This document shows positions 2,678 to 31,165 of a stretch of DNA of 64,000 bases, piece after piece. The notes under the pieces are model-generated. The model was not told the DNA's origin and made no database searches. It was given only the letters and a program-made list of their open reading frames with translations. Position 1 is the first letter of the stretch, and every line of letters starts with the position of its first letter. Made by a program: the position numbers and the translations under genes. The stretch is from a virus, in the IMG/VR virus record IMGVR_UViG_3300033475_000015. One strand, 5' to 3'.

Positions 2678-2851
2678 ATGGTTGTGTTCTGCTATTGGGT
2701 CGCCGTGGTCAGCTTCTTCGTCGCCCTGGTGCTGTGCCTGGTCGCGCCCGCGCCGCAACCGCCCCGCTGGCACTGGGCGACGTTCGTGTGCTTGGGGCTG
2801 CTTGCCTGGGCCGTGGCGGTGGCGGCCAGCGCAAGCCACCTGGTATCGTAG
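2678..2851 (+). CDS. Small two-TM membrane protein (57 aa, below ORF-track cut-off)
   Basis: AGGAG RBS; MVVFCYWVAVVSFFVALVLCLV...WATFVCLGLLAWAVAVAAS. Confidence 0.65.
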   Translation: MVVFCYWVAVVSFFVALVLCLVAPAPQPPRWHWATFVCLGLLAWAVAVAASASHLVS

Positions 2852-3145
2852 CCACACATGCGGCAGGGACCGCCCTTGATGTGACAGCCAGACCGGGCGG
2901 GTGGGATTTGTCACCCAACCCGCTGCCGCCCTGGGCGGACCGAACCGAACGTACGGCGTAAGTAGGACGTCCAGGTTTTGAGGGCGACAGGCCGTGCGCT
3001 GGCCTAAGGTAGAGCGCCGTCGGATGAGATCCGCCGACGGTTGCCGGGAAGCCGCGCCCGGGGTAGGCCCCGGGTGAAGCCAGCGCGCGGCCTGCCGCAT
3101 ACTTGTCGGCTGCGCCGCCCTCGACCAGCGTGTTAACCTGGCGGC

Positions 3146-3379
3146 ATGACTATTGCCCACCCCTCTCCGCCTGAGCCGGGGCGTGTACCTACCTACCCGT
3201 GGGCCGAGTGGCTCAACGGCAGGGAATGGACGCTGACGCGGGGGCGCGACTACTGGGATGAAAACAAGATCATGGCCCGCCGGATCCGTGGCGCGGCCAA
3301 CAACCTGCGGATCCCGGTCGTCATCGACGACTCGGACTCCCGATTCCTGCGCGTGAAGGCGATGCCGCGTGGCGACTGA
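3146..3379 (+). CDS. Hypothetical protein (leaderless)
   Basis: TGTTAACCT extended -10 six nt before ATG; overlaps next gene. Confidence 0.7.
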   Translation: MTIAHPSPPEPGRVPTYPWAEWLNGREWTLTRGRDYWDENKIMARRIRGAANNLRIPVVIDDSDSRFLRVKAMPRGD

Positions 3380-3884
3380 TGACCCGGAGTTCAACCGGGC
3401 CGCCCTTGCCCGACGCGAGCGGGAGAAGGACGAGAACCGCCGTCTGACGCTGCAGGCCCTGGAGCTGCGCAAGAACGGCATGTCGTTCCGCGAGATCGCC
3501 GAGATCCAGCACTGCAACCCCCAGACCGCCGCCCGCCGGTATCGCAAGGGGTGCAAGCAGTACCTGCCGCAGGAGCTGGTGGAGTCGGCCCGAGCCACCG
3601 AGCTCGACCGGTTCGACGCCCTGACCCAGATCAACATCTCGTTGATCGCCGAGGCGTACAAGGCCCGCGACATCGACACGCTGCTGAAGCTCGAAGACCG
3701 CACGCTGGCGATCCACGACCGACGCAAGAAGTTGATCCCGATGGAGGTCCCGACCACCATCAAGCTGGACCAGACGATCGAGACGGTTACCGACCAGGAC
3801 AGGGAGCTGGCCGCGTTCCTGGACCAGCACGAGGCCGAGGTGGAAGCGGAGATCCGCCGGATCCGAGAGACTGCCGCGCCATGA
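3369..3884 (+). CDS. HTH protein, probable terminase small subunit
   Basis: ALELRKNGMSFREIAEIQHCNPQTAARRY HTH plus helical body; upstream of terL. Confidence 0.55.
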   Translation: MATDDPEFNRAALARREREKDENRRLTLQALELRKNGMSFREIAEIQHCNPQTAARRYRKGCKQYLPQELVESARATELDRFDALTQINISLIAEAYKARDIDTLLKLEDRTLAIHDRRKKLIPMEVPTTIKLDQTIETVTDQDRELAAFLDQHEAEVEAEIRRIRETAAP

Positions 3885-4336
3885 CCGCCTCCCGATTCGA
3901 CCGGTACTACGGTCCGGCCATCTTCGGTGCCTTTGACGGCGTGGTCACCGTGCTGGGCGCCGTGTTCAGTCTGACCCACGACAGACACGCGCTGATCCTG
4001 TCCGGCGTCGGCCTGGCCGCCTCGGGCGCCGTGTCGATGGGCGCGGGTGAGTACCTGTCCGACAGCGACGCCGGGCTGGGCGCCAGCGCCGTCATCGGCC
4101 TGACCACCGGAGCGGGCACGCTGCTGCCCGTCGTGCCGTACATGGCGGACATGCCGCTGGCCACCTTCACCTCGATCACGCTGTGCCTGTTCGTCGCCGT
4201 CGGGATCAGCTGGGTCAAGTCCCGGACCGACCGGGGCACAACGCTGTTGCGCGCCGCTGCCCAGACGCTGGGCATTCTCGGGTTGGCCACCGCGTTCATC
4301 CTGCTATGCGCGTGGGCAACCGGTGCGGTAGGGTGA
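3881..4336 (+). CDS. VIT1/CCC1-family membrane protein (short)
   Basis: AIFGAFDGVVT...GAVSMGAGEYLS signature; several TM helices. Confidence 0.75.
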   Translation: MTASRFDRYYGPAIFGAFDGVVTVLGAVFSLTHDRHALILSGVGLAASGAVSMGAGEYLSDSDAGLGASAVIGLTTGAGTLLPVVPYMADMPLATFTSITLCLFVAVGISWVKSRTDRGTTLLRAAAQTLGILGLATAFILLCAWATGAVG

Positions 4337-4340
4337 CCGG

Positions 4341-4628
4341 GTGTCTGGAGAGATCGATAGCCGAGCAGCCAACGAATTTCTGACCAACGCGGTCGACGCC
4401 TACATCGAGCAGATGGGCTGGAAGGTCGAGGACATGGCGCTGACCGACGTCATGGCCGTGTTCGTCCGGCGCGGCTGGGCGCCGGACGGCGGAAAGACCC
4501 TGATAAACGCCGTGTGCGTGACCGACACCAGCGCCATCATGGCTCTGGGCATGGTCAAGTTCGCCGAGCTCAAATTCGACTCCATCGCCCGCCAGGGGTT
4601 CGAGGCACCCGCCGACGAGGAGGACTGA
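4341..4628 (+). CDS. Hypothetical protein
   Basis: ORF in tightly packed rightward run. Confidence 0.6.
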   Translation: MSGEIDSRAANEFLTNAVDAYIEQMGWKVEDMALTDVMAVFVRRGWAPDGGKTLINAVCVTDTSAIMALGMVKFAELKFDSIARQGFEAPADEED

Positions 4629-5034: not shown

Positions 5035-5267
5035 CCGGCCGAGTGGTTACCGCTCCGGCCGCGCACCTGGTGGGCGTGCGGGCAGCTGACGGCGGTTTGC
5101 TGGTCGGGCACACCGCCTGCTCCGGCCCGTGGGTGTTCGTGCCCAACATGCCGGGACAGGACCACGCGCTGGCCATCGACATCGCTCAGGCGATCATCGC
5201 CCACCAGTGCCCGCCCGGCGAGGGCGACCACGGCCAGGAGGCTGAGCGGGCGGGGGTGGTGTCGTGA
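5031..5267 (+). CDS. Hypothetical protein
   Basis: GTGA-coupled to neighbours. Confidence 0.55.
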   Translation: MTGRVVTAPAAHLVGVRAADGGLLVGHTACSGPWVFVPNMPGQDHALAIDIAQAIIAHQCPPGEGDHGQEAERAGVVS

Positions 5268-7808: not shown

Positions 7809-8330
7809 GTGACCGCGCTGGTTCCCGCCGCCGGGTGGATCGGACTGGTCAAGATCGATGGGTTCGTAGGAGAGGCCATCCGAATCGCCCAGTGGCTCAA
7901 CGGCGACGGATTCAAGGATTACGAACACGCGTTCGTCATGGTCGACGGCCAGACGCTGGTCGAGGCGGAGCCGGGTGGTGTCCGGACCGCTGTGCTGACC
8001 GAGTACCAGGGACGCGAGGTTCTGTGGATCCCGTGCCCGCCGCAATACGCCGCCGCCATGGTCTCGGCCGCCCTGGCGTACGTTAAGATCCCGTACTCGT
8101 ACACCGACTACGTGGCGATCGCCGCTCATCACCTCGACCTGGACCCGCTGCACCTGGCGCAGTTGGCCGTCAGTAAGTCCGGGCATGTGATCTGCAGCCA
8201 GATGGCTGCCGCGTGTGCGGCCAAGGCAGGCTGGCCGCTGATCCCGGACCACGAGTGGCCCGGCTACATCACCCCTGCGAAGCTCACCCGGTGGGCACCG
8301 AGCCCGCCGGTGCCCCAGCTGGTCGCATGA
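7809..8330 (+). CDS. Permuted papain-like (YiiX/NlpC-P60 superfamily) amidase or peptidase
   Basis: His motif (EHAFV...LVEAEPGGV) precedes PYSY and the catalytic CSQ motif, then ITP. Confidence 0.7.
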   Translation: MTALVPAAGWIGLVKIDGFVGEAIRIAQWLNGDGFKDYEHAFVMVDGQTLVEAEPGGVRTAVLTEYQGREVLWIPCPPQYAAAMVSAALAYVKIPYSYTDYVAIAAHHLDLDPLHLAQLAVSKSGHVICSQMAAACAAKAGWPLIPDHEWPGYITPAKLTRWAPSPPVPQLVA

Positions 8331-10066
8331 CAGCCACGCTGGACCAGCAGGCCACCGGAGATACCTCCGGTGGCCAGAACGGGGTATTCCCGACCCGCAT
8401 CATCTCCGCCTCGGAGTCGATCGGGTTCTTGGACGGCGAGACGTCCGAGACCTTCGACTGGAAGTCCTACGTCCGCAGCAGGGACAGGCGGTGGAAGGGC
8501 GAGAGCCTGTTGCACCCCAGCGGCAAAGCCAGCCGCGAGGTGATCCGCCAGTCGTCCCGCTTTCGTCGGCTGCAGACCCGGCGCGACCCGATGCTGTTTG
8601 CTCTGGTGTATCTGCGCGACCACCTGCGCTCCGAGGCTACCGGAGGCGAGATCACCATGTGCGACGCTCACATCGACTGGTGCAAGCAGGCCCTCGAATG
8701 GATCCGCCGATCCAGCCGACCACGTGAGAAGCGCGATGTCTACGTGGCCCCGCGTGAGCTGGGCAAGTCGACCTGGTTCTTTTTGATCCTGCCGCTGTGG
8801 GCCGCCGCCCACGGGCATCGCAAGTTCATCGCTGCCTTTGCCGACGCCGGTACACAGGCTGAGATGCACCTGCAGACATTCAAGAACGAGCTCGACACGA
8901 ACGCCCTGCTGCGCCGGGACTATCCCGACCTGTGCGAGCCCGCCGTCCGTGACCGTGGCATGACCCTGTCCGACACCAAGGGCCTGACCATCCGCAAGTC
9001 CGGATTCGTCTTCGGTGCCCGTGGCGCGGACTCGAAGACCCTCGGCATGAAGGTCGGGCACCAGCGGCCCGACATGCTCATCCTCGACGACATCGAGCCG
9101 GGCGAGGACCAGTACAGCGAGTACCAGGTCCAGGGCCGTCTGACCACGATCATCGACGTCATCTTTCCGCTGTCCGAGTACGCCCAGGTCGTGATCGCCG
9201 GAACAGTGACGTTGCCCGGCTCCATCATCCACCAGCTGGTCAAGTCTGTGACCGAGCCGGACGAGGAGCCCGCCGAGTGGATCCGCGAGCAGAATATGCG
9301 GGTGCACTACTACCCGCCGGTTATCGCGAACGACGACGGCACCGAGCGTTCGATCTGGCCCTCGAAGTGGCCCATCGAGTTCCTGCAGGCGATCCGCCAT
9401 ACCAGGTCGTTCCTTAAGAACTTCGCCAACAGCCCGCTCGGCCTGGACGGCGACTACTGGACCAAGGACGATTTCCAGTACGGTTCGCTGCCGCTGACCA
9501 CCAAGACCGTGCTGTCGATCGACCCGGCCATGAAGGACAAGAAGGCGACCGACTGGACGGGCCTGGCCGTGGTCGGCTGGATGCCGCCGCCGTCGCGCGA
9601 CCCGCGTGTCAAGGCCACCGACGCCGAGGACATCCAGTCCCGGATCCTCGGCAACTTCGGCATGTGTGAGGTCAAGTACGTCAGGGCCGTGAAGCTGATC
9701 GGCGAGAAGCTGCGGGCCGAGGTGCTGCGCATCCTGGAGATGTTCCCGGAGATCGGGCTGGTCCTGGTCGAGGTCAACCAGGGCGGTGAGCACTGGATCG
9801 ACATCCTGCACCACCTGCCGTGCAAGATCCAGCTGATCGAGCAGTCTGTCGACAAGCGCGTGCGGGCGGCCCAGCTGCTGGCGCACTACCAGCGCCAGCG
9901 GGTGCTGCACACCACCCGCCACGGGTCGGCCGAGGAGCAGATGGTCGGGTTCCCCAAGGCGCCGAACGACGACATGGTGGACGCCATCGGTTCGGCGGCG
10001 GTGCGCATGCTGCGACCGCCCAAGAAGGACTCCATGGGCGGCCGCAACATCGGGTCGTACGTCTAA
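8327..10066 (+). CDS. terL: Terminase large subunit
   Basis: Walker A APRELGKST, Walker B LILDD, nuclease SIDPA and DDMVDA. Confidence 0.92.
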   Translation: MTATLDQQATGDTSGGQNGVFPTRIISASESIGFLDGETSETFDWKSYVRSRDRRWKGESLLHPSGKASREVIRQSSRFRRLQTRRDPMLFALVYLRDHLRSEATGGEITMCDAHIDWCKQALEWIRRSSRPREKRDVYVAPRELGKSTWFFLILPLWAAAHGHRKFIAAFADAGTQAEMHLQTFKNELDTNALLRRDYPDLCEPAVRDRGMTLSDTKGLTIRKSGFVFGARGADSKTLGMKVGHQRPDMLILDDIEPGEDQYSEYQVQGRLTTIIDVIFPLSEYAQVVIAGTVTLPGSIIHQLVKSVTEPDEEPAEWIREQNMRVHYYPPVIANDDGTERSIWPSKWPIEFLQAIRHTRSFLKNFANSPLGLDGDYWTKDDFQYGSLPLTTKTVLSIDPAMKDKKATDWTGLAVVGWMPPPSRDPRVKATDAEDIQSRILGNFGMCEVKYVRAVKLIGEKLRAEVLRILEMFPEIGLVLVEVNQGGEHWIDILHHLPCKIQLIEQSVDKRVRAAQLLAHYQRQRVLHTTRHGSAEEQMVGFPKAPNDDMVDAIGSAAVRMLRPPKKDSMGGRNIGSYV

Positions 10067-17157: not shown

Positions 17158-17287
17158 GTAACCATGGGAGCACTCACCTTGCGTGGGTGTCAAGTACTGC
17201 GTGGTCGGGTCGCCCCGTGGCCTCGCCATGATTTCAAATGGTTCAATTGACCTAACTCTCACGAGCTCCCACAACCCCGGAGGACCA

Positions 17288-18919
17288 GTGGCCGACCCGA
17301 CCAAGGTGGTGTTGGCCACCAACCCGGACCTGATGGAGGGTCTGCAGGTGCTGGCCAACAGCCTGCCGGACTACCACCGGGCCGAGATGTATTACGAGGC
17401 GACGAACCCTGAGTTCTTCGCGTCGATCCGTCTCCGGCGGGCGCTGGAGCGTACGGGCATCACGTTCCGGTTCAACCTGGCCAAGACCCCGGTCGACGTG
17501 ATGGCCGACCGCCTGGAGATCAATGCCATTACGGTTCCGGACGACGAGGAGGCGGACCAGATCCTGCAGGAGATCTGGGACCGCAACATGCTGTCGCTGG
17601 AGTCGACCAACATCCACCGCCGGGCCGGAGAGTTCGGCGACGCCTACCTGATCGTGTGGCCGTCGGCCGACCAGGGGCAGGACGAAGACCCGGACGACCC
17701 GGAGTCCGACGATGAGGCGATGGCCGCCCTGGATTTCCAGAACGTCGACATCTTCTACAACAGTGCCAAGACTACGCGTGTCGTCTACGACCTGGAGAAT
17801 CCGCTGCGCAAGCGGTTTGCCGTCAAGAAGTGGACGATGCCCGCCCAGCTCGGCATGAAGGCCAAGCCCCCGACCCGGGTCAACCTGTACTACCCGGACC
17901 GGATCGAGAAGTACGTCAGCTCCCCGAACAGCAAGGGCAACCAGCGCCGGGACTGGATCCGGTTCCAGGACGACGAAGACGAGGGCTGGCCGGTGGCCAA
18001 CCCGTTCGGCGAGATCCCGGTGTTCCACTTTCGGACCGGGACCCCGTACGGCGACCCAGAGCACCGAGCGGGCTACGGCCCGCAGGACGCCATCAACAAG
18101 CTGATCATCACGCACGCCGCGACGATCGACTACTACGGCTTTCCCCAGCGGTACCTGCTGGCAAACCCCGACCACGGGTCGGACGAGCTGGCCGACTTCG
18201 ACACCTCGGACGACATCAACCGGTTCGAGGACACGGGACACGACTCCACGCTGCGATCCGGTCCCGGCGAGGTGTGGTGGCTCAACGGCGTGCGACAGGC
18301 GGGCCAGTTCGAGCCGCCGGACCCGGCGGTGTTCCTCAACCCGCTGGACACCTACATCCGCATGATGGCCCAGGTGACCAGTACGCCGCTGCACTACTTC
18401 GACCCTCAGACCTACACCCGTCTGCCCCCGTCGGGCGAGTCCATCCGCGCGGCCGAGGTGCCGCTGCTCAAGCGGGTGCGCCGTCGGCAGATCACCTACG
18501 GGCGCGGATGGACCGATACCATGTCGTTCGCCTTGAAGGTGGCGACCTGGGACGACGACTCTGGCACCGGCCGGATCCGGCGTCCCAACCTGACGATCCG
18601 CTGGACTCCGGCGGCCACCATCGACGACACCGCCGGGTGGCAGATGCTGCAGGCCAAGCAGACGCTCGGGGTGCCTCCGCGCCAGACCCTGCTGGAGGCG
18701 GGCTACGAGGACGAGCAGGTCGATTCGTGGCTGCCCTACGGCGGAGACGACCTGAACCAGCGGGTGGACATGTTGGTGAAGGTAGGTACCGCCGCACAGG
18801 CCCTGGCCACCGCCGCCAATCTCGGGGCGCTGGACGGCGGCACTGTCGAGTCCATCATCATGGGCATGCTCAACCTTCCGGCAGAGAAGAACACCCAATT
18901 CGACGAGGGGACATCGTGA
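17288..18919 (+). CDS. Portal protein (SPP1 gp6-like)
   Basis: NLAKTPVDVMADRLEI, NPFGEIPVFHF, QDAINK, YYGFPQRY motifs; position after terL. Confidence 0.88.
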   Translation: MADPTKVVLATNPDLMEGLQVLANSLPDYHRAEMYYEATNPEFFASIRLRRALERTGITFRFNLAKTPVDVMADRLEINAITVPDDEEADQILQEIWDRNMLSLESTNIHRRAGEFGDAYLIVWPSADQGQDEDPDDPESDDEAMAALDFQNVDIFYNSAKTTRVVYDLENPLRKRFAVKKWTMPAQLGMKAKPPTRVNLYYPDRIEKYVSSPNSKGNQRRDWIRFQDDEDEGWPVANPFGEIPVFHFRTGTPYGDPEHRAGYGPQDAINKLIITHAATIDYYGFPQRYLLANPDHGSDELADFDTSDDINRFEDTGHDSTLRSGPGEVWWLNGVRQAGQFEPPDPAVFLNPLDTYIRMMAQVTSTPLHYFDPQTYTRLPPSGESIRAAEVPLLKRVRRRQITYGRGWTDTMSFALKVATWDDDSGTGRIRRPNLTIRWTPAATIDDTAGWQMLQAKQTLGVPPRQTLLEAGYEDEQVDSWLPYGGDDLNQRVDMLVKVGTAAQALATAANLGALDGGTVESIIMGMLNLPAEKNTQFDEGTS

Positions 18920-19200
18920 ACGGCGACAGGTACACCAAGGGCGCGGCGTCGGACGCCGAGCTGCTGCACGGCTGTGGTCAGACCGGTAAAGTCATGGCGC
19001 CGGGCAACCGACACTCCGACATCACCAGCTCCACCACCAAGGGCATGGACCCCGGCATGTCGGCCACGCTGGGTCGGCCCAAGGCCAGTTCCGACTACAA
19101 GGGCTCGACCCCCGAGGACGTGAGCACAGCGCCGGGACAGCGCACGACCCAGGTCTTCGGCGCGGGCCGGGTCGCCCGTCCGAACCCCAACAACCCCTGA
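18916..19200 (+). CDS. Small head-region protein
   Basis: GTGA-coupled to portal. Confidence 0.6.
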   Translation: MNGDRYTKGAASDAELLHGCGQTGKVMAPGNRHSDITSSTTKGMDPGMSATLGRPKASSDYKGSTPEDVSTAPGQRTTQVFGAGRVARPNPNNP

Positions 19201-19239
19201 CATTGTCTTCGAGTCACTCAGTAGGATAGGCTGGTCGGC

Positions 19240-21342
19240 ATGGGCGACAACTGGGCCAAGTGGGACGCTGAGCATCCCTACATCCACCACCCCCGCGTGC
19301 GCAAAGAGGGCGAGAAGCCCAAGAGCTCGGCCGACAAGCTGGCCGAGATGATCAAGTCCACCGTGGGCAACCACGAGGGGTCCCGTGCCACCGTCCACGA
19401 GCACGGGTCCGGCGGGTCCGTCGTGCACAAGTCGGCCAAGGGCGACTTCAAGCGGCCGGTCCAGCCCAAGGGACACAAGGACCGGGCCGATAGTGCCCGT
19501 ACCACCATCCGCATGGCCGCCTACAACCGGGGCAAGAAGGGCGAGTCCCCCGAGGTCGGCAAGATCGCGCCCGAGTCTGGCAACACGGGCAAAATCCGCT
19601 CCGCCGACAGGCTGGCCGCCCAGGTTACCGGGGCCAAGACGGTTAAGGGAACCGACGGCAGCTACACTGTGTCGCACCCCGACTGGGAGGTCCGATCGGC
19701 TCAGAACCGGACCATCCGCAACAAGGCCGGGGCCGACGCGATCGGCAAGTACCAGGATGACATCTCCCGGGTGGTCAAGCAGTCCGGCGCCAAGGGTCGT
19801 CCCGGCCTGAACATCCACCAGAACGGCGACGTCTTCGACGACGACAGTGGCAAGAAGCTGGGCCACATCGAGACCCCAGGCGAGCGCAAGGCCCGTGAGG
19901 CGGGCGGGGGTGGTGTGGATGCGGGGGCCGAGTACCGGGCGCAGCGGGCCCAAAAGTACGAGGACGCCAAGTCCAAGGCCATGTCCGCCGGAGACGCCGC
20001 CAGCACGGCGCAGGAGCACCGGGCGGCAGCGGCGCTGCACGAGGTGGCCATGGAGCACGCCGCCAGTCCCAACCACCGGTCGCTGCACTACAAGCAGGCC
20101 GAGAATCACAAGAAGCAGGCCGACCTGGCGGACAAGCAGGCGGCGCGAGAGGCGGCCAAGGCGGAGCGCGCGACCCAGTCCAAGGGCAAGCCGGTGAAGC
20201 TGGTTGCCGAGTTCAACGGTCAGACCCACACCCGTACCAGCGCCCGGCCGTACACCCACGCTGCGATCTACCGCAACAGCGAGGGCAAGCACTACGCCTC
20301 GTTCCACGAGTCGCGTGCGAGCGCTCTGCGCGGCAGTGACGGCGCCCGTCCCATCGGCGTGGTTGCGGTACGTCCGGCCGACGAGGCTACCGCCGCCGAT
20401 GACGCGGCGCGCAAGCACTACGACATGGTAGCCGGGCGGGCCAAGCAGGCCAGCGACACCGCCAGGTCGGCCCGGGACCATGACGACGCGACCAAGCTCA
20501 ACCGCCGGGCCGCCGAGTTGGCTCCGACCGAGAACCACCGCAACGTGCACACCAAGCTGGCCGAGACCCACGAGAAGCTGGCCGACAACGCCCGACGGCA
20601 GGACGCTCTCAACGCCCAGAAAGAAGCCGACCGAAAGAAGGCCAGCGACGAGGCGGCCCGCAAGGTCGAGGAGGCCAAGGCCCGGGTCAACGATCGCCAG
20701 ACCAAGTACAACGACGCCCGCCAGAAGGCGTTCGAGGCCGGACGCAAGGCCGAGACCGAGAACACCCCCGAAGCGTACGAGGCGGCGTCGGCCGCCCACA
20801 CAGGTGCGGGCAACCTGGCGATCTCCGACCAGCAGCAGCGATCCCACGACACCCAAGCCAGGGCGTACCGCGAGAACGCCAAGAACCTGCGCGGCCAGAG
20901 CTCCGCCAGCAAGCTGGTAGCCGCCCGTGACAGCCGGGCCGCCAAGCCCGCCGCCCTGACTGGCCAGAATGTGCACAAGGCCCTCGAAGGTTCGGGCTTG
21001 CGGCGCAAGGTCAGCCAGGGAACCTCCACCGACTACCGGGGCCGGGTTCTGCAGCGCGGCGGCGGCATCGGTGAGGGCAAGTACGACTCCAAGAAGAACT
21101 ACGATGGTTCCTACCGGGTGGACGTCCATGGTGATCGCACCACCCCGCAGGGCGCAGCCCGTCACGACACCAACATCGCCAAGGCCCGCCAGGCCCTGGA
21201 GGCCAAGGGGTGGCAGGTCGACGAGGGTCACACCGGGATGGCTGGTCACCTGGAGGTGTCCGAGCGTAAGGCCGACGCCCAGATCGCCAAGGACCGCGCC
21301 GCGACTATCGCGAGCGTCTCGGGAAAAGCGGCAGCCCGGTAG
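19240..21342 (+). CDS. 700-aa Lys/Ala/Arg-rich head-region protein (short form of frameshift product)
   Basis: Leaderless TAGGCT -10; basic, low complexity; ends G-GGA-AAA-GCG-GCA-GCC-CGG-TAG. Confidence 0.8.
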   Translation: MGDNWAKWDAEHPYIHHPRVRKEGEKPKSSADKLAEMIKSTVGNHEGSRATVHEHGSGGSVVHKSAKGDFKRPVQPKGHKDRADSARTTIRMAAYNRGKKGESPEVGKIAPESGNTGKIRSADRLAAQVTGAKTVKGTDGSYTVSHPDWEVRSAQNRTIRNKAGADAIGKYQDDISRVVKQSGAKGRPGLNIHQNGDVFDDDSGKKLGHIETPGERKAREAGGGGVDAGAEYRAQRAQKYEDAKSKAMSAGDAASTAQEHRAAAALHEVAMEHAASPNHRSLHYKQAENHKKQADLADKQAAREAAKAERATQSKGKPVKLVAEFNGQTHTRTSARPYTHAAIYRNSEGKHYASFHESRASALRGSDGARPIGVVAVRPADEATAADDAARKHYDMVAGRAKQASDTARSARDHDDATKLNRRAAELAPTENHRNVHTKLAETHEKLADNARRQDALNAQKEADRKKASDEAARKVEEAKARVNDRQTKYNDARQKAFEAGRKAETENTPEAYEAASAAHTGAGNLAISDQQQRSHDTQARAYRENAKNLRGQSSASKLVAARDSRAAKPAALTGQNVHKALEGSGLRRKVSQGTSTDYRGRVLQRGGGIGEGKYDSKKNYDGSYRVDVHGDRTTPQGAARHDTNIAKARQALEAKGWQVDEGHTGMAGHLEVSERKADAQIAKDRAATIASVSGKAAAR

Positions 21343-21351
21343 AGTCCGGGC
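21321..21351 (+). other. Predicted -1 programmed ribosomal frameshift (GGGAAAA plus downstream hairpin)
   Basis: In-frame G GGA AAA at 21321-21327; hairpin GCCCGG-TAGAGT-CCGGGC at 21334-21351; -1 frame open to 22586. Confidence 0.75.
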
Positions 21352-22586
21352 GATCCGCCGACAAGCTGGCCGCGCAGACACGCACCACCGAGCAGGAGGT
21401 TGAGGCGGTCAAGCGTGACCACCCCAACGTGTCGTTGTCGGTGCACCGCTCCAGCGGCGGGCACATGGTGGTGTCCAAGATCGTTGTTCCCAAGGAGGAG
21501 CGCGGTAAGGGCACAGGCGGTCAAATCATGAAGCGGCTGACCGACGCTGCCGACCGCAACGGAGACACCATGGCGCTCACCCCGTCCAAGGACTTCGGGG
21601 CGTCCAGCGTCAGCCGCTTGAACACCTTCTATAAGGGCCACGGGTTCGTCGACAACAAGGGCAAGAACAAGGACTTCGGCACCAAAGAGTCCATGATCCG
21701 TGAGCCCAAGAAGGGCCCAGCGGGCGGGGGTGGTGTAAACGCTCTGCAGTCGTCGACCAAGGCACCAAGCACGGGGTCTGGACCGGCTGACATGCGCACC
21801 ACCGACGCCCAGGTAGTCCGGGACCGCAAGGCCACGGCGGCGGCGGCCAAGCCCGACGACAACACCTTTACCCAAGCGGGTAAGGATTACAAGCAGGCCT
21901 TGAAGGACCGCAACGACTCCCGGTATCGGCTGTCCACTGGGAGCAGTGCGGACGCTGACGCCGACCGGAAGACACTGACAAGCAGCGAGGCGGCCATGAA
22001 AAAGCTGTGGCCACAGCTAACCAGTCGGGACGTTGCCGAGCAGGCGGTCCGGATGGATCCGTCGGTCAACCCGGAGATCCGGCAGTCGATGGTGGACGAG
22101 GTCACCAAGCACGTCCAGTTCACGGGCAAGCACGACCTGTGGAAGAGGGCGACCATCAACCTGGGCAAGACCCCGCCCAAGGTCAACGGAACCACGATGC
22201 ACGGGGAACACATCGTGGTCGGCGATCATCTGGTCGGCAGGGACTCGTTCGGCAAGGCCAACGTCAAAAAGAACGACTTCAAAACCGGTCACCACGCCGT
22301 CGGCACCCTGGGCTCGGACGATGTCGGCGGGCACAAGGCCACCTTGGCCCATGAGATCGGCCACGTCGTGCACCACCAGGTGTACGGCGGCTCCGGCAGG
22401 ACCACTCCGGCGGTGCCCGGCACCCGGGGCACGCACAACTCCAGCTATGGCAACACCAACCACCACGAGGGTGCGGCCGAGGCGTACGCCGCCGCGTTTG
22501 CCCGTGCCCAGGGGCATCAGTACCGGAACGACCAGCTCGCCGACGTCGGCGACCAGATGGCCAAGAAGGCCCGGGAGGACAAGTGA
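21327..22586 (+). CDS. GNAT acetyltransferase plus HExxH zincin domains; probably the -1 frame extension of 19240 (fusion about 1115 aa)
   Basis: GNAT: VVPKEERGKGTGG...FYKGHGF; zincin: TLAHEIGH...EGAAEAY; first GTG at 21429 lies inside the domain context. Confidence 0.75.
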   Translation, partial: SGSPVESGRSADKLAAQTRTTEQEVEAVKRDHPNVSLSVHRSSGGHMVVSKIVVPKEERGKGTGGQIMKRLTDAADRNGDTMALTPSKDFGASSVSRLNTFYKGHGFVDNKGKNKDFGTKESMIREPKKGPAGGGGVNALQSSTKAPSTGSGPADMRTTDAQVVRDRKATAAAAKPDDNTFTQAGKDYKQALKDRNDSRYRLSTGSSADADADRKTLTSSEAAMKKLWPQLTSRDVAEQAVRMDPSVNPEIRQSMVDEVTKHVQFTGKHDLWKRATINLGKTPPKVNGTTMHGEHIVVGDHLVGRDSFGKANVKKNDFKTGHHAVGTLGSDDVGGHKATLAHEIGHVVHHQVYGGSGRTTPAVPGTRGTHNSSYGNTNHHEGAAEAYAAAFARAQGHQYRNDQLADVGDQMAKKAREDK

Positions 22587-22747
22587 CCGCCGCCCCCACC
22601 CTGGAGCAGATCGCAGCCGGGTACGGAGTAAAGCCGACCGACGTCAGTTGTTCGGGTTACGGGTCAGCGCCGGACAAGCCCCGGACCTCCGCGCAGAAGC
22701 TGGCAGACAGGATCAAGAGCAGTGGCGCAGGTCAACAGCGCCGGTAA
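22583..22747 (+). CDS. 54-aa ORF not on the track, carries KPRTSAQKLADRIKS
   Basis: GTGA-coupled; motif resembles KPKSSADKLAEMIKS in the 700-aa protein. Confidence 0.5.
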   Translation: MTAAPTLEQIAAGYGVKPTDVSCSGYGSAPDKPRTSAQKLADRIKSSGAGQQRR

Positions 22748-23843
22748 CACCCCCGCTGAGCAGCAGGCCGTCAGCGCGGTCACGACGGAGAACGCCGCCG
22801 CCGTGGCTGCGCTGCTGGTGCTGGAGAAGCAGGCTCTCGACCGGGTGACCAGCGGGCTGCGCCAGATCCTCAACGAGTTGTTCCGGCGCCTGTCGGCCAA
22901 ATACGTGCTGCTGACCGGGGCCCTGGCCAACACCACCTCCCCCCAGCAGGCCGACCAGCTCAGGCAGATCCTGATCGACGGCATCCAGGACCTGGCGACC
23001 CAGGCCCAGCAGGCTGCACAGGCTCTCGCACAGGCCGCGCAGCAGGCCCTGGCCCGGGGCCGGGAGTACGCGAACCGGTACCTGTCGGACCCGGTCGACG
23101 ACGTGTCTTTGCCTGCTGAAGTCCAGCAGCTGATCGACGGTCTGCCCGCCCAGATCGAGGCCAAGATCGACGACGCCACCCGCGCCATCGAGCAACTGGC
23201 CCTGCCCGACTGGGACAGCCTGGTCAAGGCCGTCGGCCGGGCGAACCAGGTCCCCAACTCGGTGACCCGCACCGTGACCACGGCCGTGAACCGAGCGAAC
23301 AGCAGCGCCGTCCGACAGGTCGCTGTCGAGCGGGGTGCCTCTGTCCTGTGGGTGGCCGAGCCAGACGCATGCGTTATCTGCCTGGCCTTGTCCGGCCACA
23401 TCATCGACCCGATGTCGGGCGACGGGTTCGACGAGGAGGCCACCTTCGGCCGCCCCGGGTCGGCACCTGATGTGTGGCCGCCCGGCCAGCCGCTGATGGA
23501 GCCGCCCCGGCACCCGAACTGCCGGTGTCACCCGGAACTGTGGTTTGGCCCGCACGTCGCACCGGGCGGCCCCGAGGAGACCAGCCTGTACAACCGCCCC
23601 GGAATCGGCGAGCGCGTCGATCTTGCCGCCGCACTGCGCCGGGAGGCCAAGCGCTCGGTTCTGTACGGCTGGTCCCTCGAATCCGAGTCCAACAACACCC
23701 GGCTGTATGCGGCCCGGCGCCTGCTATCCCTTGGCGCCGGACTGCCCAAGTCTGTCGAGGAGCGCGCGCACCTGGCTGTGGCACGCGGCCAGTTCGAGGG
23801 CCGTGTCCACCCGTCAAAGCGGCGTACTGCACACCGGCAATAG
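22722..23843 (+). CDS. MuF-like (phage Mu gpF) minor head protein
   Basis: ACVICLALSG...PPRHPNCRC signature. Confidence 0.8.
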   Translation: MAQVNSAGNTPAEQQAVSAVTTENAAAVAALLVLEKQALDRVTSGLRQILNELFRRLSAKYVLLTGALANTTSPQQADQLRQILIDGIQDLATQAQQAAQALAQAAQQALARGREYANRYLSDPVDDVSLPAEVQQLIDGLPAQIEAKIDDATRAIEQLALPDWDSLVKAVGRANQVPNSVTRTVTTAVNRANSSAVRQVAVERGASVLWVAEPDACVICLALSGHIIDPMSGDGFDEEATFGRPGSAPDVWPPGQPLMEPPRHPNCRCHPELWFGPHVAPGGPEETSLYNRPGIGERVDLAAALRREAKRSVLYGWSLESESNNTRLYAARRLLSLGAGLPKSVEERAHLAVARGQFEGRVHPSKRRTAHRQ

Positions 23844-23909: not shown

Positions 23910-24755
23910 TTGAAGGTCAACCGCCTGATCCCCCCGCTGCTCGGCGTGCCCATCGGGTACCTGCCCAGCGGCAAGCCCGTCTACCCCGTCTTCGGCGGGG
24001 CCGAGGACCTCGACATCGAGCCGGACGGCGAGGGGGGTGAAGAGGAGGACCCCGAGGGCGAGGACGACCCGGACGAGCCCGAGCAGGAGCCCGCCGGGAA
24101 GAAGGGCAAGTACACCCCGCCCGAGCAGTCCGAGTGGCTTAAGGTCCAGAATTCCCTGATGCGGGCCAGCGGCCAGGCCAAGCAGCGCCGTGAGGCCCTG
24201 GCCGAGGCCACCAAGAAGATTGCGGAGCTGGAGGCCGAGAAGGCCGAGCGCGAGGCGGCCGACGAGCGTGCGGCCCTGCGTGAGCAGCGCAAGCCCGCTG
24301 GCGGCAAGGCCAAGGCGGGCGGGGGTGGTGTACCCGACCTGCCGGAGGGCGTGATGACCAAGGCTCAGGTTCGCCAGGCGACCCTGGCCGCAGCCAAGGA
24401 GGCGGAGGACCGGGCGGCCGACAAGTATCGGGGCATGCTGGTTGGGACCGCCGCCCGCGCGGCCCTGGTCTCCGAGGGTGTCGGCAAGGAGGCGGCCAAC
24501 CGCCTGGTGAAGCTGCTGGACCTGGGTGAGATCGAGCTCGACCCGGACAACGGCGAGATCACCGGCGGCCTGGACGAGCAGCTGGAATCTCTGAAGACCG
24601 AACTGCCGCAGTTGTTCGCCAAGCCCGAGCCCGAGGCCCCCCGGCCCCGGCGCCGTCCGGCACCTCGGGTCACCGCCGCGCCCCAGCCGGAGGCACCAGA
24701 GCGTCCCCGCTCCTCGGCCGAGCTGATGGCCCAGTCCATCCTTGGAGGGCGTTAA
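23910..24755 (+). CDS. Capsid scaffolding protein
   Basis: Acidic/coiled-coil protein directly before the capsid gene; LKTELPQLF motif. Confidence 0.75.
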   Translation: MKVNRLIPPLLGVPIGYLPSGKPVYPVFGGAEDLDIEPDGEGGEEEDPEGEDDPDEPEQEPAGKKGKYTPPEQSEWLKVQNSLMRASGQAKQRREALAEATKKIAELEAEKAEREAADERAALREQRKPAGGKAKAGGGGVPDLPEGVMTKAQVRQATLAAAKEAEDRAADKYRGMLVGTAARAALVSEGVGKEAANRLVKLLDLGEIELDPDNGEITGGLDEQLESLKTELPQLFAKPEPEAPRPRRRPAPRVTAAPQPEAPERPRSSAELMAQSILGGR

Positions 24756-24881: not shown

Positions 24882-25928
24882 GTGCTCCGCATCAACCTGC
24901 TGAGTGGCCCCGGCGTCGCCCCCCAGACGCTCCTGGGTCACACCAGCTCCGGCAAGCCCATCTTTGCGATCGCCGGTGGCGCCCGCGACACGATGGAAGC
25001 GTGGATCCCCGAGGAGTTCGACTCCCAGGTGATCATGCGGGTCAACCAGATCTCGGGCGTCGAGGCGCTCGGGTCCCCGGTCCCCATGAACTCGGAGACG
25101 CGCTCCGTTCCCCGTTCCGCCGGTATCGGCGTGAGCGTCGTCGCCAAGGGCGGCACCTACAACGAGGACCAGTCGGTCAACGACTCGGTCATCCTGTCCG
25201 CCTCCAAGTTCGGCCAGGCCGTCCGCATCGCGGAAGAGGACATCGACGACTCGATCGCCGACGTCATCGCCACGAAGCAGAAGGACTGGGCGACCTCGTA
25301 CGGCAAGATGTTCGACAACGCCTGTCTGGCCACCTCGGCCGCCCCGGGCGCTGGCGTGCCGTTCGCGTCGGTGTACTACTCGCTCACTCAGAACGACTCG
25401 AACACCGGCTACACCGCCAACAGCAACCTGACCCAAACCGGGTCCGGCGGCACCACGTACACCACCCTGTCCAACTCCCTGGGCAACGTCGAGCGCGGCA
25501 ACTACTTCGACATCTCGGAGATGGTCTGTCTCGCCCACCCGGCGTACCGCAACCTCCTGCGGAACATCAAGGACACGAACCAGCGTCCGATCTTCCAGGA
25601 GTCGACCGGTGGCTTCCCCGGCGGCGGTATGGCCGCCTCGCCAGACACCATCTTCGGCATCCCGATCCACTGGTCGCTCGGCGCGATGACCTCCGCCACG
25701 GCGACCGCCACCCCGACCGGCAACCCGCTGCTGATCTGGGCGAACCGCAACTACATGATCGTCGGCCGCCGCTCCGGCCCGGAGTCGGTGTTCATCGACG
25801 GTCGCAACGGCCTGGCCGCCCTGACCGACGAGTCGATCCTGAAGATGCGCGCCCGGCGTGCGTTCGCGGTCGGCCACGAGGCTGCCTTCGCGGTCCACGA
25901 GGACAACAGCGGCTCGCTGCTGATCTGA
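24882..25928 (+). CDS. Major capsid protein (HK97 fold)
   Basis: AWIPEEFDSQVI, KFGQAVRIAEEDIDDS, TIFGIPIHW, LKMRARRAFAV. Confidence 0.88.
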   Translation: MLRINLLSGPGVAPQTLLGHTSSGKPIFAIAGGARDTMEAWIPEEFDSQVIMRVNQISGVEALGSPVPMNSETRSVPRSAGIGVSVVAKGGTYNEDQSVNDSVILSASKFGQAVRIAEEDIDDSIADVIATKQKDWATSYGKMFDNACLATSAAPGAGVPFASVYYSLTQNDSNTGYTANSNLTQTGSGGTTYTTLSNSLGNVERGNYFDISEMVCLAHPAYRNLLRNIKDTNQRPIFQESTGGFPGGGMAASPDTIFGIPIHWSLGAMTSATATATPTGNPLLIWANRNYMIVGRRSGPESVFIDGRNGLAALTDESILKMRARRAFAVGHEAAFAVHEDNSGSLLI

Positions 25929-30811: not shown

Positions 30812-31165
30812 ATGACCGCCAAGACGCGCAAGCACACCACCCCGCCCCCACCTGAATTTGTGTTCGAGGCGGCCGACGGCGCCGAGGATCAGCCGGTCGA
30901 CACCGTGCCGCTGTTCCAGGTGGGCGACAAGGTGTACACGATGCCTGCCGTCCCGGGCCAGGCGGACGCCGTCCGCATGCTGCGCGAGATCCGGCTGCGC
31001 GGCGTCGCGTTCGCTTCGGAACTGATGCTGTCGATGTACGTCGGAGACGAGGGTGTCGACGCCCTGATCAACTCCAAGGGGTTCGATGTGGACCGCTGGA
31101 ACGATATCACCTCCAAGGTCACCGCCCGGATCTTCGGGGCCAGCGACCAGGGAAAAGAGGACTAG
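30812..31165 (+). CDS. Tail assembly chaperone (gpG-like)
   Basis: Between tail tube and TMP; slippery GGGAAAA at 31150-31156. Confidence 0.85.
   Translation: MTAKTRKHTTPPPPEFVFEAADGAEDQPVDTVPLFQVGDKVYTMPAVPGQADAVRMLREIRLRGVAFASELMLSMYVGDEGVDALINSKGFDVDRWNDITSKVTARIFGASDQGKED

Follow-up and report, generated by a model that had tools for sequence, protein, structure and literature searches.

A likely programmed -1 frameshift between a carrier protein and GNAT- and zincin-like cargo in the head module of an uncultured soil actinophage

We analysed a 64-kb stretch of viral DNA, the IMG/VR record IMGVR_UViG_3300033475_000015 (the whole stretch is called the window below), and within it the region 19240-22586, in which an open reading frame (ORF) for a basic 700-residue protein is followed, in the -1 frame, by sequence encoding a GNAT-like and a zincin-like module. 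The initial annotation of this DNA had proposed that the two parts are fused by a programmed -1 frameshift in the head module, the second such frameshift in the window. Our analysis upholds this proposal, as the signal is conserved and uses rare codons, the -1 frame carries coding signatures, and homology in the -1 frame extends upstream of its start codons. It is likely that a functional programmed -1 frameshift yields both a 75-kDa carrier and a 120-kDa carrier-GNAT-zincin protein. Sequence comparison establishes that the signal is present and conserved and that the -1 frame is coding back to the slippery heptamer; the slip itself and its efficiency are inferred.

The carrier gene, ORF-A, defines the 0 frame and spans 19240-21342 (on the plus strand, like all features of the region given below). 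It ends with the codons TCG GGA AAA GCG GCA GCC CGG TAG, the stop codon occupying 21340-21342. Within this end lies the slippery heptamer G_GGA_AAA (21321-21327), in the X_XXY_YYZ register of ORF-A, followed by a 6-nucleotide spacer (21328-21333) and by a presumed stimulatory hairpin, GCCCGG-TAGAGT-CCGGGC (21334-21351, with arms at 21334-21339 and 21346-21351), whose loop contains the 0-frame stop. The RNAfold centroid contains this 6-bp, all-GC stem, and the length of the spacer is within the 5-9 nucleotides or so of canonical -1 signals. The cargo region that would be read after a shift, 21327-22586, comprises 419 codons and a stop. The open stretch of the -1 frame extends from 21270 to 22586, and the first ATG, GTG or TTG in this frame past the slip site is the GTG at 21429, codon 35. 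The predicted products have 700 residues (75.5 kDa, isoelectric point 9.8) and, for the trans-frame protein, 1115 residues (119.9 kDa), the latter with the junction ...SVSGKSGSPVESGR... On the plus strand of the window, GGGAAAA occurs in two places only, 21321 and 31150. The second (31150-31156) is the in-register G_GGA_AAA heptamer of the tail assembly chaperone, which served as a comparison site; its -1 extension has 103 codons and ends just 5′ of the tape-measure gene. When all XXXYYYZ heptamers on both strands of the window are considered (Y being A or T), a perfect 6-bp hairpin follows one of the 38, namely that at 21321. The codons involved are little used: GGA accounts for 9.6% of glycine codons, AAA for 5% of lysine codons and CCA for 5.2% of proline codons. 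All the elements from which the initial annotation had argued were recovered, that is, the in-register heptamer identical to that of the tail chaperone, the GCCCGG/CCGGGC hairpin just downstream, the open -1 frame lacking a start codon before 21429, the product sizes of 700 and about 1115 residues, and a SADKLAAQ motif in the bridging -1 peptide (at 21354) with repeats in the upstream protein (three similar copies in ORF-A, at 19327, 19600 and 20902).

Relatives of the carrier (loci and proteins are cited by L and P numbers, respectively) were found by protein homology and not by motif; they come from soil metagenome contigs, in which they occupy syntenic head modules. In L007 the junction consists of tcG_GGA_AAA, the spacer gcctga and the hairpin GCCCGGC-cccga-GCCGGGC, with the zincin in the -1 frame. 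In L008 it consists of ccC_CCA_AAA, gcgtag and GCCCGG-ccgaga-CCGGGC, with an RSADKLA linker and the GNAT module in the -1 frame, and in L009 of gtC_CCA_AAA, gtgtaa and GCCCGG-ctgata-CCGGGC, with an unassigned -1 ORF of 193 codons. In each carrier ORF the heptamer is the sole in-register XXXYYYZ sequence and is situated 12-21 nucleotides 5′ of the stop. The initial annotation had left the conservation of the heptamer in homologues to be checked; it is either kept as G_GGA_AAA or swapped for C_CCA_AAA. The encoded dipeptide thereby alternates between Gly-Lys and Pro-Lys among the lineages, and slipperiness is retained. Since the amino acids change and a slippery sequence of rare codons is kept, the pattern points to selection on the heptamer at the nucleotide level. 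Similarly, the stems are constant and the loops differ (TAGAGT, CCCGA, CCGAGA and CTGATA) in the window, L007, L008 and L009. In L011 and L012 the stem is GCCGCC/GGCGGC at the same 6-nucleotide distance, equivalent to three pair flips in which both arms are altered. Six related lineages each have a slippery heptamer, a spacer of exactly 6 nucleotides and a hairpin.

Some of these relatives have the reversed polarity. L011 (encoding P0004) and L012-L014 (encoding P0006) read gaG_GGA_AAA, 6 nucleotides and the hairpin, but here the 0 frame runs into the cargo and the -1 frame closes after 7-10 codons. A shift at such a junction would yield a short carrier, as in E. coli dnaX (tau/gamma), in which the frameshifted product is a replication protein. 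The dnaX gene is an apt analogue of L011 and L012, whose 0 frame likewise continues and whose -1 frame would give the short form; the window itself has the opposite, gag-pol type of polarity.

Four lines of evidence, from sequence comparisons and a structural model, indicate that the -1 frame is translated upstream of its first start codon. First, the three codon positions in 21328-21428 have GC contents of 0.73/0.52/0.85 when read in the -1 frame, which matches the real genes of the window, and of 0.55/0.85/0.73 in the 0 frame; the periodicity thus changes frame at the heptamer. Second, the alignment with L008, the closest relative with the same cargo, is poor 5′ of the heptamer and very good from the heptamer onward, and the differences at 21353, 21356 and 21359 are synonymous third positions in the -1 frame. 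These changes fall in the RSADKLAAQ linker motif (21351-21377), which lies in the -1 frame 5′ of any start codon and is kept in L008. Third, a cargo search of 1.84 billion representative proteins gave 2789 matches to the GNAT-like module, some of which align from cargo residues 3-30, 5′ of the GTG at residue 35; PHROG and tblastn matches to the cargo also begin upstream of that residue. Fourth, the AlphaFold model (mean predicted local distance difference test score, pLDDT, of 78) has a confident helix at nucleotides 21387-21419, which is the first element of the fold.

The cargo begins with a minimal GNAT-like module (21387-21713), which includes this helix, the sequence RGKGTG (21501-21518) and the sequence FYKGHGF (21627-21647). 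RGKGTG represents the acetyl-CoA motif (R/Q-x-x-G-x-G/A), and its R, G and G are invariant. Every PDB match that Foldseek lists for the GNAT model is a GNAT acetyltransferase (E from 1.4e-3, with probabilities of mostly 0.9-1.0); a PDB sequence search of the cargo gave two GNAT entries, at no better than E ~0.7. With its length of about 110 residues the module is a short GNAT that does not have the N-terminal arm, and it recurs in giant phage proteins whose annotations are DarB-like, PLxRFG or methylase, many of the 2789 matches being in proteins of 1000-6000 residues. The zincin-like module (21972-22583) has the motif HEIGH (22350-22364) and a Glu-containing stretch, EGAAEAY (22467-22487); HEIGH and the downstream Glu are invariant in five zincin homologues. 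There are weak matches to Peptidase_M78 and CapP, and PADLOC gave only a weak CapP match. With regard to the two domains that had been claimed downstream, then, the GNAT fold is borne out by the model and by Foldseek though its Pfam scores are sub-threshold, and the zincin has its motif (HEIGH and Glu) and weak fold matches. The cargo activities are accordingly described here as a putative acetyltransferase and a putative metallopeptidase.

The same kind of junction is found at other loci. We scanned IMG/VR for the pattern (GGG or CCC)AAAAG-N5-GCCCGG-N4-7-CCGGGC and obtained 29 loci, in most of which the heptamer, in slippery register, ends an ORF of 600-750 residues. The upstream part of the pattern loci is a portal protein (PHROG match to the first 480 positions of phrog_2662), and the downstream part is a MuF/head morphogenesis protein (phrog_2662 positions 490-717, phrog_115, PF04233). 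MuF is in the -1 frame at L050:2073, L057:6890 and L037:2096 (the upstream 700-residue ORF of L037 having no PHROG match), and in frame in L041, L046, L051:5484, L060:2107, L061 and L062:1880. The contigs are high in GC, and the two classes are one base apart in the hairpin loop. The MuF frame of L050 runs for 95 codons before it reaches a start codon. A similar switch separates L043 (region 5076-5082) from L047:1249, two close relatives in which the portal has a NUDIX-like part: the same 54-residue tail follows G_GGA_AAA in the 0 frame in the former and in the -1 frame in the latter, with hairpin loops of 7 and 6 nucleotides. A variant of the pattern with the GCCGCC stem retrieves typical tail-chaperone sites in viral contigs, and for this reason we count the layout of heptamer, spacer and hairpin as the ordinary -1 frameshift signal of the lineage. 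No close cultured relatives of the IMG/VR portal-MuF loci were found in the phage collection.

A broader generalization is possible, and we offer it tentatively. In high-GC phages the heptamer, 6-nucleotide spacer and GC hairpin could together be a portable junction for recoding, placed where the modules of portal-associated head proteins meet (carrier-cargo and portal-MuF). Its polarity would be switched by one-base indels in the loop, so that a shift either adds or removes a module, and both forms would always be made, at a ratio set by translation, with a downstream cargo that can be exchanged as a cassette.

(Three further observations concern these loci. At L051 and L057, the portal-MuF loci whose sequence was read, the 3′ arm of the hairpin codes for the P-G of a WPG motif. 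At L053, L055/L063 and L064, C_CCA_AAA and a hairpin end a membrane-like protein of 195-310 residues, with the stop 1-4 codons on; the -1 ORF has from at least 60 codons, where it is cut by the end of the locus, to 322 codons, and neither part matched a PHROG or Pfam family. In L071-L074 and L084, G_GGA_AAA and the GCCGCC hairpin are internal to the protein and are preceded by 537-840 codons; the 0 frame goes on for about 98-106 codons and the -1 frame closes after 5-12.)

Several observations weigh against a functional frameshift at 21321. The trans-frame protein is a prediction from sequence, attested neither by experiment nor by reads; a look-up of sequencing runs gave one soil-metagenome DNA run, which contains a tenth of the words sampled, and listed no RNA run. 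In 80-nucleotide windows the sequence folds no more favourably than GC-rich shuffles do (z -0.3 to -1.8), and the case for the hairpin therefore rests on its positional conservation. The family is small, with about six independent lineages. As to the cargo, the GNAT Pfam scores are below the gathering cut-off (22.4 bits for PF13508, as against 27), and the fold matches of the zincin, to M34 gluzincins and Pro-Pro endopeptidases, have E values of 0.4-3. In L007 a second frame break (L007:8055-8080) occurs in the zincin, just after the HEVGH helix, without a slippery site. This break stems either from misassembly of the Logan contig or from decay of the cargo, and it shows that indels or assembly errors do occur in the carrier family. 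Finally, L011 and L012 keep the heptamer and hairpin though their cargo is in frame, where the element is unneeded to reach it. Such in-frame relatives allow two readings, one in which every lineage has a use for both forms and one in which the element plays a further role at the module boundary.

If that further role were the main one, the heptamer and hairpin would be a conserved module boundary that serves in pausing for co-translational folding or assembly, in mRNA processing or as a hotspot for cargo-exchange recombination, with negligible frameshifting and a downstream frame that is poorly expressed or not expressed. Such a role would explain why L011, L012 and several portal-MuF fusions, with their cargo in frame, still have the element, and why the similarity between the window and L008 begins exactly at the element, as a cassette junction would. 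However, we consider this explanation improbable. The -1 cargo is under purifying selection and its catalytic motifs are intact, and the strict X_XXY_YYZ register, the rare codons and the fixed 6-nucleotide spacer are features specific to -1 slippage. The same layout also serves tail-chaperone frameshifts, and roles in recombination and in frameshifting are compatible with each other.

We regard as very improbable that the region consists of two independent genes, in which case the downstream ORF would start at GTG 21429 or ATG 21465, perhaps by termination-reinitiation, and the heptamer and hairpin would be incidental. Automatic gene calls do give a separate 373-residue protein, P0010, from ATG 21465, and separate downstream genes are called in databases for L008 and L009. 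However, no Shine-Dalgarno-like motif was found before GTG 21429 or ATG 21465, or 5′ of the first candidate starts of the -1 ORFs of the relatives, and both starts truncate the conserved helix and linker of the GNAT module. A start at 21429, which the initial annotation had named as the alternative, would remove a conserved structural element, and P0010, whose start is inside the GNAT module, is without the first helix and also without the first strand, model residues 41-46. Moreover, it is precisely 5′ of these starts that the -1 frame has its coding signature and synonymous-only changes, and the rare-codon heptamer is conserved or exchanged for another slippery one. It is scarcely credible that a true single ORF of 1115 residues has been split by an indel that arose in assembly or sequencing, or by a recent frameshift mutation that inactivated it: one-ORF fusions exist among the relatives (P0004, P0006, P0007 and P0008) and the extra break in L007 looks accidental, but the 0-to-minus-1 break is found in four independent assemblies from different samples at the exact same heptamer, with a stop within 1-5 codons, so that a sequencing artefact is ruled out, and besides, the A4 run is not error-prone and chance indels would not fall on a slippery site with a hairpin. 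(With an A run of only four, transcriptional slippage is unlikely to be the principal route.)

For the programmed frameshift that we favour, the following course of events can be proposed. Most ribosomes would end at the TAG at 21340 and release the 75-kDa carrier. A fraction would be halted for a time by the GC hairpin (21334-21351) while tRNA-Gly and tRNA-Lys occupy G_GGA_AAA, and would then slip back by one base and continue in the -1 frame, giving the 1115-residue, 120-kDa protein that consists of the carrier, the RSADKLAA linker, the GNAT-type module and the C-terminal zincin. MuF toxins, polyvalent proteins and T4 internal proteins suggest, by analogy, that the leader of the carrier (described below) may take both forms into the procapsid near the portal, that the efficiency of frameshifting would set the ratio of cargo-bearing to plain copies, and that the cargo may enter the host along with the DNA. 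The zincin could be an effector in its own right, or a protease that frees the modules at the repeated linkers. On the interpretation given in the initial annotation, the shift would keep the copy number of the cargo low, and the carrier might be an internal protein of the head that is abundant and is injected with the DNA.

The carrier belongs to a family with variable modules. ORF-A matched no Pfam or PHROG family, and an ESM Atlas search of ORF-A gave only rows of low TM-score and a low-confidence model. The N-terminal MuF domain (PF04233) was not detected in ORF-A by Pfam and PHROG scans, and the MuF-like gene of the window is a separate one. The homologues P0003-P0009 sit in syntenic head modules. 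About the first 130 residues are conserved across the family (35 invariant columns in alignment A1) and form an N-terminal leader (19249-19623) with the motifs NWAKWD..., SADKLA..IK, GSGGSVVH, RT.IRMAAY and RSADRLAA, and a C-terminal domain immediately 5′ of the slip site (20953-21318) is common to P0004 and P0006. In other members, modules share a single ORF with the leader: an ADP-ribosyltransferase (PF03496) in P0006, P0008 and P0159, the same zincin as in the window in P0007 and P0012, an unassigned region plus the zincin in P0004, and the GNAT alone after the start of the leader in P0013 (134 residues). (A ParB-like label for the middle of P0004, prompted by a DGHHR motif, was dropped, Pfam giving no match.) The architecture is that of a polymorphic effector family with a putative N-terminal trafficking part, and the leader looks like a packaging or trafficking signal. 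In L010 two leader genes (NWAKWD..RSADKLA..GSGGSVVH) are adjacent, at 1515-2594 and 2786-4534, one with an ADP-ribosyltransferase and one with a zincin.

Repeated motifs also occur between modules. The linker between the GNAT and the zincin (21780-21836) reads GPADMR..DAQ..RDRKAT and resembles the end of ORF-A at 21271-21306. The sequence ADAQ..KDRAAT is thus seen just 5′ of the slip site and again, after GPADMR, between the GNAT and the zincin, as well as in P0007 and P0008. These repeats and the RSADKLAA-like ones look like module linkers; that they are protease or processing sites is speculation.

The proposed frameshift resembles several known systems in part. In the tail assembly chaperone of lambda and most tailed phages (G/GT; Xu, Hendrix and Duda 2004, as cited in PMC6316719), a -1 slip at X_XXY_YYZ near the end of a short ORF likewise gives two proteins with a common N-terminus in a fixed ratio. 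In contrast, the present site belongs to the head module, an enzymatic cargo of 419 residues makes up the extension and the carrier family is unrelated. MuF polymorphic toxins of temperate phages (Jamet et al. 2017, PMC5576092) are also encoded in the head module next to the portal and have a conserved N-terminal part with variable, toxin-like C-terminal domains, but the carrier here has no MuF domain and its cargo is joined by a frameshift instead of in frame; the words ‘frameshift’ and ‘slippery’ are absent from that paper. The polyvalent proteins of phages and conjugative elements (Iyer et al. 2017, PMC5512222) include DarB-like proteins; the GNAT of the window is homologous (42-48% identity) to modules in giant phage proteins annotated DarB-like or PLxRFG, and it is combined with a metallopeptidase. 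They differ from the present case, in which there are two enzymatic modules only, a dedicated leader and carrier, and a link by recoding, and no Pfam polyvalent-metallopeptidase family was among the matches. The analogy to these two groups that the initial annotation had drawn therefore holds for the architecture (an ADP-ribosyltransferase or zincin on a leader, and GNATs in polyvalent proteins) and fails for the carrier, which is not a MuF protein.

Recoding near a stop codon also extends a fraction of the copies of a virion protein in SPP1 gp17.1* (PMC6316719) and in the major head protein of phage A2 (a frameshift extension; Garcia et al. 2004, as listed in PMC10885494). Those extensions are structural or decorative and are borne by major capsid or tail proteins, whereas here enzymes would be attached to a non-capsid carrier; the SPP1 review treats tail frameshifts only. 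The PRFect study (PMC10885494) scored pairs of MuF-like and VIP2 ADP-ribosyltransferase genes among its predicted actinobacteriophage frameshifts as false positives, remarking that a fusion elsewhere makes recoding possible. That case concerns a different carrier (MuF) and a prediction alone, without comparative analysis. In our literature search, which covered few subscription journals, we found no frameshift that joins a head carrier to effector domains or a portal to MuF. A swappable enzyme cargo attached by frameshifting would be a variant both of phage recoding and of polymorphic phage head effectors.

If this is correct, annotation misses a class of recoded head proteins, and in the present case has called the GNAT gene with a truncated N-terminus. 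Frameshifting would provide a simple translational route by which a fixed minority of enzyme-bearing copies is loaded into the capsid, which bears on how phages might deliver anti-defence or takeover enzymes with their DNA. Soil actinophages would have a new polymorphic carrier family, with a leader and swappable ADP-ribosyltransferase, GNAT and zincin modules, and the two junction polarities in close relatives would constitute a natural experiment on the tuning of protein ratios by recoding.

The window comes from an uncultured soil actinophage, has 67% GC and contains a phage structural module. This module includes the terminase (8177-10066), the portal gene (17183-18919, plus strand; phrog_104, E 1.4e-62), the MuF-like head morphogenesis gene that is separate from the carrier (22722-23843, plus strand; phrog_2662 positions 457-704, phrog_24918 and phrog_241, with a weak PF06152 match), the scaffold (23910-24755) and the major capsid protein (24882-25928), and further downstream the major tail protein, the tail chaperone (its heptamer also on the plus strand) and the tape-measure gene. 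The closest cultured relatives of the portal are in Streptomyces phages, at 31-39% identity. In one cultured Streptomyces phage, KimJongPhill (L065), MuF is directly 3′ of the portal, and relative to this phage 19240-22586 is therefore counted as an insertion between portal and MuF. The DNA of the region had no match in 50,697 phage records, tblastn of ORF-A against phages likewise gave none, and scanning IMG/VR with ORF-A as a single protein returned no relatives. A profile search of genome contigs with the leader alignment was also empty, so that there is no prophage copy and no host assignment. Small ORFs precede the carrier-cargo gene in the relatives and, together with it, make up an insertion specific to the uncultured lineage; in the window the interval between portal and carrier is 18919-19240. 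At the other end, an ORF of 54 codons (22583-22747) overlaps the cargo stop, and in L010, L011 and L012 the cargo is likewise followed by ORFs, of 49-56 codons; the product of the 54-codon ORF could be an immunity or assembly factor.

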